Positions 8,526-28,955 of a stretch of DNA of 32,000 nucleotides are shown here, in pieces. The notes under the pieces are model-generated. The model did no database searches and was not told where the DNA came from. It worked only from the letters and a program-made list of their open reading frames with translations. Every line of letters begins with the position of its first letter. Within the stretch, counting starts at the first letter, position 1. Source of the stretch: Candidatus Harpocratesius repetitus (GTDB lineage: Archaea; Asgardarchaeota; Lokiarchaeia; Sigyniarchaeales; Promethearchaeaceae); contig JAIZWK010000001.1 in the NCBI GenBank assembly GCA_021498095.1, positions 1,290,001-1,322,000 of the forward strand, in the 5' to 3' direction. The position numbers and the translations under genes are program-made.

Positions 8526-8774
8526 TACTTTACACCCATAGTATTATATTAATAATATACTACTTTGCTTTTTGAGTTAAAGAATTTATTGCTGAGTAGA
8601 TTCAAAATATTATTTTTATTTTTTTATTGCATGGCAAAGGCGGGTGGCAAATACATAAGAAAATTTAACTGAATTGTATAACTCTTTGAAAAAATTCCAT
8701 CTTTGATTGGAAAGTTTCCATTTCACAAAGTAAAAATAGTTTTAACCGTTAAAGTTCTATGGGTAACTATCATC

Positions 8775-9377
8775 ATGACACAAAAAAAAAATCCACATTT
8801 GATCTATAAAATAATTTTAGCTGGGGATGGAAATTGTGGGAAAACTACACTTCTTCGTTCAAAGTTAGCCAAGCAATTTGTTCCAGTGGAAAAAATTACA
8901 ATAGGAATTGATTTCGATTGCTATAAAATCATAAATTACCAAGAAGAAGATGTTGATTTGCTGGCGTATGATCTTGGAGGACAAAAACACTTTCAATTCA
9001 TACATTCTGCATTTATTTCGGGTGCTAAAGCCGCAATTGTGTTCTATGATTTGACTCGAGCATCAACAGTGGAAAATCTTCCTCACTGGATAAATTTGGT
9101 ACAAACTGAATATCCATCTATTCCAATCGTTCTTGCAGGGTCGAAACGAGATTTAGTAGATCGTGAAACTATGGATGAGTTTAATCAAAAAATCCAAGAA
9201 GTTATTCAACAATTGCCCCCACATACGAATATTGTCGATCATGTAATGTATTCTGCATATTCATTAGGTGAATGTAATCAAGTATTTGCAGAAATCCAGA
9301 ACTTGGCAGTATCATGGAAGAATCAAATGATTGCATCCAAATCGAATGCAATAGATACACAACAAACATCAATTTAA
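8775..9377 (+). CDS. Ras-superfamily (Rab-like) small GTPase
   Basis: G1 GDGNCGKT, G2 TIGIDF, G3 DLGGQ, G4 variant SKRD, G5 SAY; ATG 8775 preferred over TTG 8703. Confidence 0.92.
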   Translation: MTQKKNPHLIYKIILAGDGNCGKTTLLRSKLAKQFVPVEKITIGIDFDCYKIINYQEEDVDLLAYDLGGQKHFQFIHSAFISGAKAAIVFYDLTRASTVENLPHWINLVQTEYPSIPIVLAGSKRDLVDRETMDEFNQKIQEVIQQLPPHTNIVDHVMYSAYSLGECNQVFAEIQNLAVSWKNQMIASKSNAIDTQQTSI

Positions 9378-18671: not shown

Positions 18672-20075
18672 TTGAAAACAATAATTCCGCGTCATGGTTT
18701 GGCAGATTTTGAGAAAATGCAACCTTTAACAAAATCAAAAATCATTGAGATATTTGGGCCTCCAGATCAGGAAATTTCTCATGAAAATTATTCAATACAA
18801 ATGAATTATGAAGAAAAAGGGCTGAATTTCTATTATCGAATAAGCGAAAAGGAAAAAGATGCTCCGATTATCACTTGTGGCTTTGTATCTCCATTTGAAG
18901 GGAAAACTGAAGATGGAATTGTCTTAAATAAAAGTACAATGAAAGATGTATTTCGTATTTGTGGAGAAGAAACATGGCTGACTACTGATAAATCACCATA
19001 CTGGTGGGTAGAAGAATCTGGAATTTCCTTTTATGTGCCTAAAGAGAGTAGTAATCGTGATTTTCCATTTAAAGTAGAAGATCATATTGATAAAACTATC
19101 ATACGAATGACAGTTCCTTTAACTTATCGTGAAGAAGAATTTTTAGTTAATGAAGATGGATTATTAATTCGAAGTGTTGATGAATATTGCATTGACGGCA
19201 CTCTCCACGATCCTATAATTGATGAAGAGAGAGCAGAACAAATTTGCAGCAAATGCGGATTGATCTTGGATGATCATATGATCTCCATGGAATATAGTGG
19301 AGAGCGCGCATTTTCAAAAGCAGAGCGCCAAAGAAGGCAGACTCATGGAAGTCCTGTTAATCCTTTAATTCCTGATTTACAAATGGCAACAATGATCGAT
19401 AAGCGCGCTACGATGCCTGATAATCTTCGTAAAGCAATTAAGTGGGATAGTCGTTATTCATGGAAACAACGAAATATGATTCAAGCAACTTCAGAGATTA
19501 AACGAATCGGAGAATTACTTAATCTACCACAACATGTAAAAGTCTATGCAATTAAATTATATAGAAAAGCATTTACACTTGGATTATTGAAAGGAAGAAG
19601 TATTAGAGCAATGGTTGCTGCTTCTATTTACTATGCATGTGGAGCGGAAAAAATACCAAGAACATTACAGAATATTGTTAAAGTTTCTGATTCAACATTT
19701 CATCAGATCACAAAATGTTATCAATCATTAATAAAAGAGTTAAATCTTCCAAGCCCAACTATAAGTCCGAAAAACTTAGTTTCTTCATATATTTCTATCT
19801 TAAATTTACCTCATAATGTAGAAGTGACTGCAGGAAAAATTTTAGATAAATATGAAAAAATTTATTCTCTATCTGGAAAAGATCCCAAAGGATTAGTTGC
19901 TGCCGCTTTATATATTTCCAGCCAATTGAATAAAATAAAGATTTCTCAAACAAAAATATCTCGAACAGTGGGAATTACTGAAGTAACACTACGGAATCGT
20001 TTACGGGAAATGCAGAAATTTGTTCGCAATAAAAAAAGAACCACTTCTAAAAATAAAGTGGAAAAAAAGAAATGA
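18672..20075 (+). CDS. tfb: Transcription initiation factor IIB (TFB) with about 150-aa N-terminal extra domain
   Basis: Zn ribbon (C173/H179, C192xxC195), B-reader ERAF, cyclin repeats (LLKGRSIRAMVAASIYYAC; GKDPKGLVAAALYI), BRE HTH (SQTKISRTVGITEVTLRNR); GGAGG SD before TTG. Confidence 0.92.
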   Translation: MKTIIPRHGLADFEKMQPLTKSKIIEIFGPPDQEISHENYSIQMNYEEKGLNFYYRISEKEKDAPIITCGFVSPFEGKTEDGIVLNKSTMKDVFRICGEETWLTTDKSPYWWVEESGISFYVPKESSNRDFPFKVEDHIDKTIIRMTVPLTYREEEFLVNEDGLLIRSVDEYCIDGTLHDPIIDEERAEQICSKCGLILDDHMISMEYSGERAFSKAERQRRQTHGSPVNPLIPDLQMATMIDKRATMPDNLRKAIKWDSRYSWKQRNMIQATSEIKRIGELLNLPQHVKVYAIKLYRKAFTLGLLKGRSIRAMVAASIYYACGAEKIPRTLQNIVKVSDSTFHQITKCYQSLIKELNLPSPTISPKNLVSSYISILNLPHNVEVTAGKILDKYEKIYSLSGKDPKGLVAAALYISSQLNKIKISQTKISRTVGITEVTLRNRLREMQKFVRNKKRTTSKNKVEKKK

Positions 20076-20107: not shown

Positions 20108-20365
20108 TTATCCCTTATTAATACCAATAAAAACGATTGAATCGCCACGTAAAACGATTTTTTTGAATTTTTCTGTCTTTTCGATTAAATTTTCTTCATT
20201 TTCAGAATCTCGTTCAAAATATGTATAATCTACATCTTCAAGTAATACATTCAAATGAGCATTAAATGATTTCAAGATTCCTTTAAACGTTTTATTTCGT
20301 TTACATTTAATAATGATTGCTTTTCCTAGTGATTCTCCTAAAGATTGAATTGGATCAAGTGGCAT
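20108..20365 (-). CDS. Sm/Lsm-like protein (SmAP)
   Basis: Sm1 FKGILKSFNAHLNVLLEDV and Sm2 IVLRGDSIVFI. Confidence 0.92.
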   Translation of the reverse strand: MPLDPIQSLGESLGKAIIIKCKRNKTFKGILKSFNAHLNVLLEDVDYTYFERDSENEENLIEKTEKFKKIVLRGDSIVFIGINKG

Positions 20366-20464: not shown

Positions 20465-21733
20465 TTACCATACTATTTGTGAATATCCACATTTGGAACA
20501 TTTTATTTCAGTTGATTGAGGAGGAAAAGTTTCTAAGATTTTTTGACAATTTACACAATTTAAATCGATTAATTTGTAGTCATTGGGGTAGAATTTTCGA
20601 TTTATAATGTGTTGTTGGAAATCTAATACAAGATTGTGAATTAAAGTGGCGACAAGATCTTTATTTTTACAACTTACATACAATGCGAAGAAATTATTTT
20701 TTATTTGTGGAATTGCTAGAACTTCTAAAGATCCATCAGGACTTTCAATTGTTCCAAGATAAAACCACATAGGAACAGGTTTATCGTTTTTCAAGATATT
20801 TGAAAAATGATAACGTTTCATAATTTCATGAAAAAGAGGTAGAACCATTGATTGACAATCAAGATTTGGGCATCCCACTCCTTGCATCCTTTTAAAATAT
20901 TCTGGATTTCTCATGATTGCCTTGATATCGCTGATATTTCCCTCTAATGGTTGTATCTCGGGAATATTGAAATCCACATTTATTTCTTCTAACTTAATTA
21001 AACGCATTGTATATTTATTATTTCGAAATTGAAAGAAACCATTGATATGAAATTGTCGATTTAAAATATCATAAACATATAATCTTAGCGTTTTAGTAGA
21101 TTTTGCTGGTAATTCATCTAAATTTATTATAATTTCTCCTGATTTTCTTTCAAATGGATATTCATCAAATTGTGGTTTTATTGTCAAATTTTCATCATGC
21201 ATTAACCGGATTTTTCCTTCACTAGCAGGAAAGTCAGATGAATTCTTTATTCCAATAATTGTTACAGTTTTAATTCCGATTATTTTTACAGTCATTTCTA
21301 TAGAGATCAAATCTTTTTGATCAATTTCTCGAAGTTTTGAAGTACTAATTTCCAGTTTATTTTCTTTTTTCTCTACAACATTGGACATTAAGTGTCTTAA
21401 ATTTTCAACTCGAGGTTCATCTTGTTCAGTCACACCAAGTAATCGAAATTGTTCTAAATCCCAATCAATAATCTCTTCTAATTTTAGTTTTTTTTTTTGA
21501 ATTTCATCGATTGTAAATACTAAGTAAGTTCTTCCATCAGAATTTGATTGAATTTTCCCAAAAATTTTATTATCTTGATACAACTTAATCAAAACTTCAC
21601 GAACTTCATAATCATCCAGAGAAAACTGCGCTTTTATCTTGTTAAGATCAATTTTATCATAGTTTAACATATTTTTCATTAAATAAGTTGCAATTTTTTG
21701 GATGTTGAAATTCTTTTTCAATAGATTGCTCAC
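20465..21733 (-). CDS. Hypothetical protein: PCI-like wHTH, putative adaptin/coatomer appendage-like region, C-terminal Zn ribbon
   Basis: KIDLNKIKAQFSLDDYEVREVLIKLYQDNKIFGKI (PCI-like); beta-rich aa 143-255; alpha/beta aa 256-375; CVNC...CSKC. Confidence 0.6.
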   Translation of the reverse strand: MSNLLKKNFNIQKIATYLMKNMLNYDKIDLNKIKAQFSLDDYEVREVLIKLYQDNKIFGKIQSNSDGRTYLVFTIDEIQKKKLKLEEIIDWDLEQFRLLGVTEQDEPRVENLRHLMSNVVEKKENKLEISTSKLREIDQKDLISIEMTVKIIGIKTVTIIGIKNSSDFPASEGKIRLMHDENLTIKPQFDEYPFERKSGEIIINLDELPAKSTKTLRLYVYDILNRQFHINGFFQFRNNKYTMRLIKLEEINVDFNIPEIQPLEGNISDIKAIMRNPEYFKRMQGVGCPNLDCQSMVLPLFHEIMKRYHFSNILKNDKPVPMWFYLGTIESPDGSLEVLAIPQIKNNFFALYVSCKNKDLVATLIHNLVLDFQQHIINRKFYPNDYKLIDLNCVNCQKILETFPPQSTEIKCSKCGYSQIVW

Positions 21734-22063
21734 GATCTACCGTCCCTCTTAATTTTAAATTTTATTTTTATACAAAAAAGTATGTAACTCTCTCCTTATT
21801 ATTTTTGCTTTTCTTTTTTTTGAAATAAAAATTCCGAAATTATTTAATCCGTTGTATTTTATCATACATATCGATAATGAATAATCATGGTATTGCAAAA
21901 GCCGTTAATATCAGTCTTAAGAAAGGAGAAATTAAAGAAAACGTTCACTCCAATCATTATTAGCTTTAAAGCCACTGATGTTCGAATTTTATAAAAATCT
22001 AAGGAATATTTATTTTATTACTTTCAGAGGAACTTTTATAATGCTCTTTCTCTTTTTTTAATT

Positions 22064-22717
22064 ATGAATTCCCCAAACATTTCCAATTTTACTCACTTAT
22101 TACAATCATTATTTCAAACTAAAACAATTGGTCCTTCATATAAGCCTTCTCATATTTTATTTGTTCTTTATATTATTGGAAAAGAAAAACAAGGTGTTGG
22201 GCGCTATCGAATAAAGAAAGAAGTAGGACTTGGGGAAGGTTCAATAAAAACTCTGTTAAATCGTTTAAAAGATGAAGATATACTTCAAGTTGAAGTGTCT
22301 CGCCAGCGAGGTCATATTCTTACTGCAAAAGGAATTGAATTATTTCACCATATTTCAAGTATTATTCCATTACCATTGCCTTTATCAAATCCGAACGATA
22401 AATATGTCATTGGTAAAGTTGCATATTTTTCTTTACTTCAACCTGAGAGACTTGTTTCTGATTACAATCGCTTGACATTGGCAATTCGTGATGAAGCTAT
22501 AAAAGTTGGAGGAACAGGATGTAGCACTCTTGAATTTAATGGTAATCAATGGTTTTTTTTGGATTCATCTTCTTATGTGGTCGATTTGAAAATTCCATTA
22601 GAAAAAAATGTTATTGTAAAAAAAGGAACTGTCATGGTAATTGGTGGAGGTAACTCCATTACCAGTGCTATTTTAGCCACATTTGCTGCATGTTTTCGAT
22701 TAATTAGTGATCTTTAA
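22064..22717 (+). CDS. wHTH plus DUF4443-like archaeal protein
   Basis: GRYRIKKEVGLGEGSIKTLLNRL and IRDEAIKVGGTG match the pattern of this archaeal family as I recall it. Confidence 0.75.
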   Translation: MNSPNISNFTHLLQSLFQTKTIGPSYKPSHILFVLYIIGKEKQGVGRYRIKKEVGLGEGSIKTLLNRLKDEDILQVEVSRQRGHILTAKGIELFHHISSIIPLPLPLSNPNDKYVIGKVAYFSLLQPERLVSDYNRLTLAIRDEAIKVGGTGCSTLEFNGNQWFFLDSSSYVVDLKIPLEKNVIVKKGTVMVIGGGNSITSAILATFAACFRLISDL

Positions 22718-26605: not shown

Positions 26606-27295
26606 TCAACGATTAAGATGCAAATAATGCTTAAATTGTTCAAAAGTTGAGGCAACAATTTCTTCAATTTGGTTGTATATCGCTCTAATTTGATCTACAT
26701 TAAGATTTGGAATAGTTGTGCATTCTGAAAAGTATTGAGGGAGTTGTTGTGCTAATTGTATTAAGTGTTCGCTGAATGGATCAAATCCATGAACCTGCTT
26801 TAAGGATGAAATTAGTGCTTGTAACAATTCTTTAACGAAATCTTCATCCAAATCCTCCGCTATATGTAAATAATCCAGCAATGTTATAAAATCTGAGGTT
26901 ACTTGTGTCGCAACTTTAGCTAAATAAAAAGGATCTAACTGCCATTGCTCGGCTAATGAGTTGAATTTATAATCCATTGTGGATGCAATCAATGAAATTA
27001 TTGAGCGAAAATTTCCTTCAACATCAAAACCATTCACTATATCAAGGATTGAAGCCCGATTTAAATGGAGCTCACGTTGCAAATTCAGAATTTGCTGATA
27101 AAAATACCGCATACGACGAATGTAAAAGTTAGTATCCACCGATCCTTTTTCAAATCGAGATTGTAAAAATTTTGCTGTTTGCAAAATCGAATATAGATCC
27201 GCCTTTTGTTCGATTAAAGGGCGTGGTCGTGAGAATTCATTTTCAATCTTTGAAGATCTAGGCGAAAACATTCGAATTTCAAATAAATTTGGCAT
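26606..27295 (-). CDS. vps28: ESCRT-I subunit Vps28 homologue
   Basis: ADLYSILQTAKFLQSRFEKGSVDTNFY matches the Vps28 N-terminal hairpin (AELYSII..LEKAY.KD); VTSDFITLLDYL matches the C-terminal bundle motif (FIT.MD.L). Confidence 0.85.
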   Translation of the reverse strand: MPNLFEIRMFSPRSSKIENEFSRPRPLIEQKADLYSILQTAKFLQSRFEKGSVDTNFYIRRMRYFYQQILNLQRELHLNRASILDIVNGFDVEGNFRSIISLIASTMDYKFNSLAEQWQLDPFYLAKVATQVTSDFITLLDYLHIAEDLDEDFVKELLQALISSLKQVHGFDPFSEHLIQLAQQLPQYFSECTTIPNLNVDQIRAIYNQIEEIVASTFEQFKHYLHLNR

Positions 27296-27977: not shown

Positions 27978-28955
27978 TTAACTTCCTCCACCTAATTTGG
28001 CGATCAAATCTAAATTCCAACCAAGTGTTGGGCGAAGGAAAATGGTGGTATAAATAATTAATATTGCAACTATTAAATTTCCAATAAGTAAACGTGTGGT
28101 ATTAGTATTTCCAATCTCTCTAAATGCTAGGGACATTAAGACAGTGGACCACAAGACGGCGATAATTTGCAGAATATCTAAGAATGACCAAACAAATTTT
28201 CGATCCCATAAAGGTTGAATTGTCTGTGTTAATGTGGCTGTATTTGAGAAGTTTCCCAAATCAATTGTAGGTAATCCAATTAATAGGACTATTAATGAAA
28301 GTAAATTGACAATCACAAATGGTGTATAGGCATAATTCATTAATTTTTTCTTACCCGTTTTACGTATACTTGAATATTTATATTTTTTCTGGAGAAGTTC
28401 TGGTGAGAGTTCATCTTTTTTCTGACGAGTTAATCGAGTCCGACCTGAGATAAAGTCTCTAAATTTCCCTTTTTTAACTTTCACGTTATATCGTATGGCA
28501 ATTATTCCATCTAACTGAACGCTGAAATTGGCGGCAAGTTCAAAAAATAGAGAATAAAGCCAAAAAGTTAAACGCCAGTATATTAAACCAAAAATAAAAA
28601 GTACAATGAAAAATGCACTTCCCATCATTACTCTATTTAATAATGGTTCGGATGAAGTTTTTATATGCATAAATATTGCTACTCCCCACAAACCAGTTAA
28701 AAGACCGTTGAAAAAGCGGATAAATCGAGGTCCCCATGAATCTTTCTTTTTATTTATATCTCGAAAGGCATAGTTTGGTTTAATGATAGTTTTTACAAGG
28801 CGTTTGAAAACGGGATCAGGCTTAAACCAACGTTCTTGAGGGCGCGCAAATATTGGAATGCTCTCAATTTTTTCTACTTTCATTTGGTAACCGCAGTTAT
28901 CGCAGATATATACATCTAAATCGGTCTCATTTCCACAAGAGGGGCATCTGGCCAT
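27978..28955 (-). CDS. Yip1-domain membrane protein with N-terminal Zn ribbon
   Basis: CPSC...CDNC; TIIKPNYAFRDI and YAYTPFVI Yip1-like motifs; about 5 TM segments. Confidence 0.75.
   Translation of the reverse strand: MARCPSCGNETDLDVYICDNCGYQMKVEKIESIPIFARPQERWFKPDPVFKRLVKTIIKPNYAFRDINKKKDSWGPRFIRFFNGLLTGLWGVAIFMHIKTSSEPLLNRVMMGSAFFIVLFIFGLIYWRLTFWLYSLFFELAANFSVQLDGIIAIRYNVKVKKGKFRDFISGRTRLTRQKKDELSPELLQKKYKYSSIRKTGKKKLMNYAYTPFVIVNLLSLIVLLIGLPTIDLGNFSNTATLTQTIQPLWDRKFVWSFLDILQIIAVLWSTVLMSLAFREIGNTNTTRLLIGNLIVAILIIYTTIFLRPTLGWNLDLIAKLGGGS

Follow-up and report, generated by a model that had tools for sequence, protein, structure and literature searches.

A predicted coat-type ear set between a PCI-type winged helix and a zinc ribbon in a protein family of Lokiarchaeia

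A gene of Candidatus Harpocratesius repetitus, located in the stretch of 32,000 nucleotides analyzed here (the window; contig JAIZWK010000001.1, positions 1,290,001 to 1,322,000), encodes a protein the central part of which, amino acids (aa) 140-380, very probably folds like the appendage (ear) of adaptins and COPI, with an immunoglobulin (Ig)-like sandwich followed by a platform, according to structural models. The window is AT-rich and archaeal, with a GC content of 27-34%, and belongs to a genome assembled as one contig of 4.36 Mb. The gene corresponds to a single open reading frame (ORF) on the reverse strand (20465..21733), with a GTG start and its stop codon at 20465-20467, and its product of 422 aa is here termed P0001. 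This ORF is a real gene; its start position is common to P0001 and to full-length homologues with 55-92% identity, the nearest of which, from Candidatus Harpocratesius sp., is 92% identical and has the same length and start. P0001 comprises four parts, namely a winged helix, a linker of about 60 aa modelled with low confidence, the two-subdomain module at aa 140-380 and a C4 zinc ribbon, and it is presumably a soluble, cytosolic, non-enzymatic modular protein.

Predicted fold of the ear and its structural matches

The full-length AlphaFold2 (AF2) model of P0001, built from nine sequences, has a mediocre predicted local distance difference test (pLDDT) of 69.6, with values of about 80-89 over aa 140-380, and its top Foldseek matches are the COPI and AP-2 appendages (E 1e-10). 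The AF2 model of the ear only (aa 136-384), built from 38 diverse sequences, reaches a pLDDT of 92.8, with five of five models above 91, and a predicted template modelling score (pTM) of 0.81. It places nine sandwich strands between aa 143 and 254 (pLDDT about 95), in agreement with the beta-rich segment that a first-pass annotation of this DNA had set at aa 143-255; the motif IIGIKNSSDFP, with which that segment had been said to start, lies instead at aa 159, with an earlier IIGIK at aa 151. The same annotation had described an alpha/beta segment running from PEIQP to a strand and a final helix, and this too was found as described, with PEIQP at aa 258-262, WFYLGT at aa 323-328 and the strand and long last helix at aa 348-379.

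When the ear-only model was compared with the PDB using Foldseek, the top 12 matches were all COPI beta/gamma or AP-2 alpha/beta2 ears (E 2.5e-10 to 4e-8), the named ones being COPI beta 9qpq_H (E 2.5e-10), AP-2 alpha 2vj0, 1w80 and 1b9k, gamma-COP 1pzd and 1r4x, and beta2 1e42. The top alignments extend over some 250 columns each and cover both subdomains in the same order. The top match of the VIA search, which is independent of Foldseek and covered 48,161 chains, is the AP-2 alpha ear 1w80_A (Z 13.4), with the beta2 ear 3h1z_A in third place (Z 12.8). In VIA the platform alone (model residues 122-245) also matched the AP-4 beta ear 2mj7, with Z 12.7 and a root-mean-square deviation (rmsd) of 2.5 Å over 116 of 141 residues; this appendage is a platform-only ear, and the sole platform-only match within the VIA top 50. 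The first-pass annotation had read the region as a coat ear, to be checked by Foldseek comparison of an AlphaFold model with the AP-2 and gamma-COP appendages, and these searches bear out the structural side of that reading: the best matches in the whole PDB are AP and COPI ears, rather than another fold or bacterial Ig-like domains alone, and the platform matches an ear in its own right. Weaker Foldseek matches fall on the same module in chains O, P and Q of the Fanconi core complex (7kzp) and in BBSome subunits. At the level of sequence, the commonest weak Pfam match in the family is Alpha_adaptinC2 (PF02883), present in 16 of the 38 members with a best E-value of 6e-4.

Several results nevertheless weigh against assigning the module to the coat ears. 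In the VIA search a wide range of sandwiches, the GAE domain and mu-homology domains among them, match the sandwich half at Z 10-13, and bacterial pilins, macroglobulins and integrins fit it about as well as ears do (Z 10-13), so that this half is not diagnostic by itself. Similarity in sequence to the ears of eukaryotes lies below every curated threshold: no ear match reaches the Pfam gathering score, aa 136-384 of P0001 have no Pfam match whatsoever, and in the family scan the platform yielded no Pfam match to any platform family (B2-adapt-app_C, Alpha_adaptin_C, COP-gamma platform). In a similar vein, neither the full-length profile (A1) nor that of the ear (A3) retrieved an adaptin from the PDB sequences. 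Finally, when both halves are superposed jointly on eukaryotic ears, the template modelling (TM) score is 0.31-0.49, with an rmsd of 12-15 Å; the best superposition (TM 0.49) covers 157 residues and the others range from 0.31 to 0.40. These values argue for a predicted orientation of sandwich and platform unlike that of eukaryotic ears.

Predicted archaeal ears of the ESM-Atlas, by contrast, superpose on the P0001 ear at TM 0.69-0.79. Clusters with this geometry comprise 329-aa and 788-aa proteins of Promethearchaeota and a 243-aa protein of Methanobacteriota (TM 0.69-0.70), and the difference between both ranges of TM argues that archaeal ears, in the models, share one inter-subdomain angle of their own that differs from that of eukaryotic ears. 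A weak match of the A3 profile to the SH2 domain of SYK, over the platform strands (E 0.02-0.09), was discarded as a chance match, since the SH2 segment has a helix where the model has strands.

Two further ESM-Atlas clusters, from Thorarchaeota, match the ear partly (TM 0.46-0.47). Their proteins have 407 aa (80% with HEAT_2) and 758 aa; HEAT repeats beside an ear-like module, as this may imply, would be nearer to the true adaptin layout.

Flanking parts of the protein and their distribution

The gene and the parts of its product map as follows, all on the reverse strand:
20465..21733, -, whole ear gene, 422 aa (ORF and homologues sharing its start)
21518..21715, -, leading helix and PCI/DDRGK1-type winged helix, aa 7-72 (Pfam PCI, profile A4, AF2 secondary structure)
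21317..21517, -, hinge-like linker with predicted loose helices, aa 73-139 (pLDDT < 50; variable among relatives)
21437..21478, -, acidic-aromatic linear motif, aa 86-99 (conservation in winged-helix forms)
20966..21316, -, putative Ig-like beta-sandwich of the ear, aa 140-256 (ear model, weak Alpha_adaptinC2 match, VIA matches)
20594..20965, -, putative alpha/beta platform of the ear, TBP-like / helix-grip, aa 257-380 (AP-4 beta appendage match)
20468..20572, -, C4 zinc ribbon, aa 388-422 (invariant cysteines, segment alignment, weak Pfam zinc-ribbon matches)

At its N-terminus P0001 has a winged helix of the PCI type. The Pfam PCI match covers aa 18-64 (model positions 30-76 of 84) at an E-value of 0.0056, below the gathering score, and recurs in 10 of the 38 family members, with a best E-value of 1.6e-5. 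Profile A4, made from the N-terminal 80 aa of 20 members and searched against all PDB sequences, matched almost exclusively the winged-helix part of CSN2, eIF3c, Rpn3, Rpn6, Rpn9, Rpn5 and CSN1, together with DDRGK1; the E-values (0.0017-0.1) are individually marginal, yet the list is consistent, and bacterial or archaeal regulator families turn up in it only sporadically. The AF2 secondary structure, with a helix at aa 7-24 and then a strand-helix-helix-strand-strand succession over aa 27-72, completes the support for the PCI winged helix that the first-pass annotation had placed at aa 25-73. Nevertheless, this is not a full PCI domain, because its helical-repeat (TPR-like) half is absent from the P0001 model, in which the single helix at aa 7-24 precedes the winged helix.

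Residues 82-140 of the full-length model have a pLDDT below 50, and the linker differs in length and sequence among relatives. It contains at aa 86-99 a conserved motif with the consensus D-W-[DN]-hydrophobic-x-x-F-[DN]-L, with acidic residues ahead of it, in which I88, D90, W91, D92, L93, Q95 and F96 are invariant in close relatives. This motif is retained down to relatives with 30% identity (P0010-P0018) and is confined to the forms bearing the winged helix. An ear-binding motif and a motif resembling the LC3-interacting region (LIR) were considered for it and rejected, as no known pattern fits the relatives consistently. The zinc ribbon at the other end of the protein, also proposed in the first-pass annotation, follows the pattern C-x2-C-x15-C-x2-C with a conserved final tryptophan, and its cysteines (C393, C396, C412 and C415) are invariant across 38 of 38 relatives.

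An exhaustive HMMER search recovered 43 family representatives at 50% identity, to which a search with profile A2 added P0052 (655 aa), at least one further member. About half of the family consists of proteins of 405-430 aa with an N-terminal winged helix; most of the remaining forms have about 330 aa and start shortly ahead of the sandwich, and a few carry other N-termini. Since the forms of about 330 aa begin just before the sandwich, the ear and the zinc ribbon constitute the constant core of the family, and the winged helix and linker are an add-on. All named representatives are from Lokiarchaeia/Promethearchaeia. The ear profile A3 (E <= 1e-5) has matches in 190 of 400 Asgard genomes, including 13 of 13 genomes of the family of the window organism, 134 of 135 of a large sister family and every genome of several smaller families of the order, while in other classes it scores lower and probably picks up different ear proteins. 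The unit of ear and zinc ribbon is encoded at a single locus almost throughout one order of Lokiarchaeia; given the 43 representatives and the matches in 190 of the 400 genomes, the features of P0001 lie far beyond chance.

The window genome encodes one further ear protein, P0063 (756 aa; L010:1150-3420 on the reverse strand, G000:C1 about 350910-353180). It consists of an N-terminal zinc ribbon resembling that of P0001, four tandem winged helices, an ear and a helical tail, and its winged helices match PCI (1.9e-16), E3_UFM1_ligase (3.9e-8, over the Pfam cut-off) and DDRGK. The relation between both proteins rests on a profile match (E 1.6e-11), BLASTP of P0001 against P0063 being non-significant except for the zinc ribbon (E 0.016). 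P0063 is a reshuffled version of the three modules of P0001 (zinc ribbon, PCI-type winged helix and ear), and this fusion of a UFL1-like winged-helix array to a coat-type ear may merit separate study. A Promethearchaeota cluster of 77 proteins in the ESM-Atlas has the make-up of P0063.

A distant member of the P0001 family, P0051 (504 aa, from a metagenome contig), has, ahead of the ear and zinc ribbon, several CxxC zinc ribbons together with an extended hydrophobic segment that apparently spans the membrane, and its gene adjoins that of a response regulator.

Genomic neighbourhood and possible function

The immediate surroundings of the ear gene in the window are the following:
21734..22063, no strand, AT-rich divergent intergenic region of 330 bp between the ear gene and the PH0730-like gene (measured spacing)
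22064..22717, +, PH0730-like protein of 217 aa with a winged helix-turn-helix (wHTH) and DUF4443 (Pfam PH0730-like_N 1.9e-10, DUF4443 1.6e-8)
20108..20365, -, Sm/LSM protein of 85 aa, 99 bp downstream of the ear gene (Pfam LSM 9.7e-16)

The PH0730-like gene is thus divergent from the ear gene, which is followed by the Sm gene and then by a convergent TFB gene. This order is kept in loci L001-L005, whose ear proteins are 58-66% identical to P0001, and in L006 and L007 (about 30%). The Sm gene pairs with the ear gene in L001-L005 and L007 (with a gap of 0 nt in L007), and it is absent beside the 330-aa forms in the loci from other genomes. The PH0730-like gene adjoins the ear gene in L004, L006, L007, L008, L012 and L014. 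Within 1.5-kb flanks, 29 loci from other genomes contain a PH0730-like gene in 22 cases and a JAB gene in 23, although the genomes concerned are related members of one order and hence the counts are not independent, which tempers any reading drawn from them, our own included. The distant 330-aa forms and one form of 426 aa present a divergent PH0730-like gene, then Prok-JAB and then a proteasome subunit (L008, L012, L013, L014). In the sister family this conserved block of proteasome subunit, Prok-JAB, PH0730-like and divergent ear gene spans L008:4926-8990, L012:2543-6005 and L014:386-3673. The divergent intergenic gap measures 80-170 bp in most relatives, compared with 330 bp in the window. 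The divergent pair persists even where protein identity falls to about 20%, which suggests that the ear and PH0730-like genes are co-regulated or share a function. DUF4443 is single-copy in the window genome (one Pfam match), and the PH0730-like protein matches 2p8t in the PDB (E 2.5e-11), the only solved DUF4443 relative, which is uncharacterised.

In the window no JAB or proteasome gene adjoins the ear gene, the place being taken by TatD. A Pfam search of the window genome found six JAB-like genes, none of them near the window, and the JAB protein of L008 has no match in that genome. The window further contains genes for Alba, L34e, L14e and a TrmB/MarR-like protein, besides those for TFB and Sm.

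The TFB gene (18672-20075, forward strand, 467 aa) encodes a protein with a long N-terminal extension and is always convergent to the ear-Sm pair; its relatives lie at L001:9640-11067 (475 aa), L004:10090-11460 (456 aa) and L006:4059-5732 (557 aa). In some genomes of the organism's own family, a molybdenum-cofactor/molybdate-ABC operon (MoaA, MoaC, MoeA, MOSC, ABC transporter) is found between the ear and PH0730-like genes (L001:1443-7883).

The first-pass annotation had linked the protein to the origin of vesicle coats and called for a neighbourhood survey across Asgard genomes. The survey points elsewhere: the conserved neighbours are PH0730-like, JAB, proteasome and Sm genes, and neither an ESCRT nor a coat locus appears among them. 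The Pfam scan of the window found no adaptor-trunk, mu or sigma gene anywhere in it and no ESCRT or coat gene beside the ear gene, P0001 has no Adaptin_N match or HEAT/ARM trunk, and the neighbourhood holds no membrane-deforming partner. The nearest ESCRT gene, a Vps28 homologue (26606..27295, reverse strand), is 5 kb distant, with ribosomal and other genes in between. Support for a link to vesicle coats is therefore lacking and a proto-coat is not shown, and a direct role in a vesicle coat is the least probable of the functions considered here. The context unexpectedly directs attention from coats and ESCRT operons towards a wHTH/JAB/proteasome neighbourhood.

The Vps28 homologue (26606-27295) is full-length (Pfam VPS28 1.1e-5), lies directly upstream of rpl34e-cmk-rpl14e and is the only ESCRT gene in the window. 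Near it, a membrane protein with a Yip1 domain and a zinc ribbon at its N-terminus is encoded at 27978-28955 on the reverse strand; this gene adjoins the Vps28-like gene in L004 too, where the order Yip1, 247-aa ORF, L34e, cmk is also found. Two trafficking-type genes on the forward strand, encoding an SPFH/Band 7 protein (37-1206, 4.6e-23) and a small GTPase of the Ras/Roc family (8703-9377, 3.8e-24), are not adjacent to the ear gene.

Eukaryotic ears are hubs for short linear peptide motifs, their platform and side sites binding DPF/W, FxDxF and WxxF. By analogy with this role, and given the domain boundaries, fold assignment, distribution and neighbourhood described above, it seems somewhat probable that P0001 acts as a peptide-docking adaptor, and any partner or pathway proposed for it here is likewise put forward conditionally. 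The ear would capture short motifs of partner proteins, while the winged helix might provide a second contact point, through edge-strand pairing with other winged-helix proteins, and the zinc ribbon a third. In the family of the window organism, the winged helix, tethered by the flexible hinge-like linker, would thus add contacts to the unit formed by ear and zinc ribbon. If the ear does bind defined peptide motifs, it would offer a tractable route to the ancestral clients of ears. The architecture of P0001 (winged helix, hinge, ear, zinc ribbon) is compact and soluble and should be easy to express, and the order to which the ear and zinc-ribbon family belongs includes cultured relatives suited to its study.

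Other explanations have to be set against this proposal, beginning with the likeness to coat ears itself, which could be convergent or generic if a common Ig sandwich and a common TBP-like/helix-grip domain had come together with neither ancestry nor mode of action shared with AP and COPI. The sub-threshold sequence similarity, the equally good fit of the sandwich to many unrelated proteins and the inter-subdomain geometry (TM 0.31-0.49 on eukaryotic ears) are what such an origin would predict. Yet we regard it as unlikely, for both halves match in order, ears head two independent searches, an adaptin ear is the one platform-only match in the VIA top 50 and no other weak Pfam match in the family is nearly as common as Alpha_adaptinC2; in addition, a comparable ear from Methanosalsum reached an HHpred probability of 98 against 2IV8 and 5NZR (Makarova et al., PMC10936438). 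Similarly improbable, in our view, is that P0001 serves as a substrate or partner adaptor in a ubiquitin-like/proteasome pathway, working alongside the JAB (MPN) metalloprotease and proteasome subunit whose genes lie next to those of its relatives, in a simple version of PCI-MPN assemblies such as the proteasome lid or CSN; binding of the modifier or substrate would then fall to the zinc ribbon or the ear. The four-gene block of L008, L012, L013 and L014 (proteasome subunit, Prok-JAB, PH0730-like, divergent ear gene), the JAB gene at <= 1.5 kb in 23 of the 29 loci, the PCI/DDRGK1 type of the winged helix and the match of the paralogue P0063 to E3_UFM1_ligase over the Pfam cut-off all speak in its favour, but in the window TatD occupies the place of the JAB/proteasome gene, the JAB-linked relatives are mostly 330-aa forms devoid of the winged helix, the winged helix itself comes without the helical repeats that make up the other half of a genuine PCI domain and, the genomes being related, the gene order may be merely inherited.

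The same N-terminal winged helix and zinc ribbon might also be taken for those of a DNA-binding transcription regulator, in which both would contact DNA while the ear would sense or bind a co-factor. Zinc ribbons are frequent in archaeal transcription factors, and the neighbours include transcription-related genes (PH0730-like wHTH, TFB, TrmB/MarR-like and Alba). However, the winged helix matches PCI/DDRGK1 types, which are mostly protein-contact domains, with regulator families appearing sporadically, and most of the family (the 330-aa forms) does without the winged helix while retaining the ear, the zinc ribbon and the PH0730-like neighbour; such a role is accordingly quite improbable, although a direct role in a vesicle coat ranks lower still. 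Returning to the docking adaptor, a broader and very doubtful scenario may be envisaged in which the ear and zinc-ribbon protein, the PH0730-like wHTH/DUF4443 protein and the JAB metalloprotease would form a Lokiarchaeia-wide module feeding or regulating the proteasome. The coat-type ear would then have first docked substrates or partners in PCI/MPN-like turnover, and only later in coats, and the PCI-type winged helix gained in the window family would represent an early PCI-MPN pairing.

Comparison with known ear and PCI proteins

In eukaryotes, clathrin adaptors and COPI have ears as their interaction hubs, and finding such domains in Asgard archaea is relevant to the question of how the trafficking machinery was assembled from older parts. 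Eme et al. (2023) reported the Alpha-adaptin C-terminal domain and the Beta2-adaptin appendage C-terminal subdomain in Asgard genomes, unfused to other adaptor domains (PMC10307638). Makarova et al. (2024) described 'adaptin appendage regions', with IG and TBP halves, in archaeal ESCRT-linked proteins, in a Methanosalsum zhilinae protein (arCOG15284, Meth_adaptin loci) composed of an N-domain, an ear (100-340) and a Zn ribbon, the ear being matched to 2IV8 and 5NZR with an HHpred probability of 98, and in Asgard multidomain proteins, where ears occur together with domains of the Vps28-C, longin, TPR, IG-like and HTH/PCI types; these authors read archaeal ears as interaction modules and functional analogues of ESCRT-0 (PMC10936438). 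P0001 belongs to this known class of archaeal adaptin-appendage proteins and represents a known part in a new architecture. The novelty implied in the first-pass annotation, which set the domain combination apart from those of eukaryotes, has to be narrowed in consequence: archaeal ears with HTH/PCI domains, and ears with a Zn ribbon, were already published (PMC10307638, PMC10936438), while the particular architecture of P0001 and its family were not found described in the literature.

The proteins of Makarova et al. resemble P0001 in their IG and TBP halves, in the zinc ribbon after the ear, in a small N-terminal domain and in the occurrence of PCI-type winged helices within the class. They differ from it in that the P0001 gene lies outside any ESCRT (Vps4/ESCRT-III) locus, in a PH0730-like/JAB/proteasome or Sm neighbourhood, and in that P0001 has no Vps28-C, steadiness box or longin. 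The Methanobacteriota cluster shares the predicted ear geometry of P0001 (TM 0.69-0.70), the link to arCOG15284-type proteins being structural only.

With the ears of AP-2 alpha/beta2, AP-4 beta and COPI beta/gamma (1w80, 1b9k, 1e42, 3h1z, 2mj7, 1pzd, 9qpq_H), P0001 shares the order of sandwich and platform and a preceding hinge-like linker. In contrast to these, it has no HEAT/ARM trunk, stands outside any heterotetramer, remains below threshold in sequence and has its halves oriented otherwise in the model, and it continues beyond the platform into a zinc ribbon and has a winged helix ahead of the hinge. The same module is known outside a coat heterotetramer in the GAE and platform domains of BBS2/7/9 in the BBSome and in the Fanconi core complex (6vbu, 7kzp; Foldseek E 4e-7 to 7e-5, VIA Z 11.0 for 6vbu_9), although AP/COPI ears give the stronger matches and the beta-propeller and helical domains of those proteins are absent in P0001. 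Lastly, the PCI proteins (CSN2, eIF3c, Rpn3/6/9) and DDRGK1/UFL1 have a winged helix that is alike according to profile A4 and Pfam PCI; a multi-PCI horseshoe is without support in P0001, which has the winged-helix half only, matched with marginal E-values (0.002-0.1).

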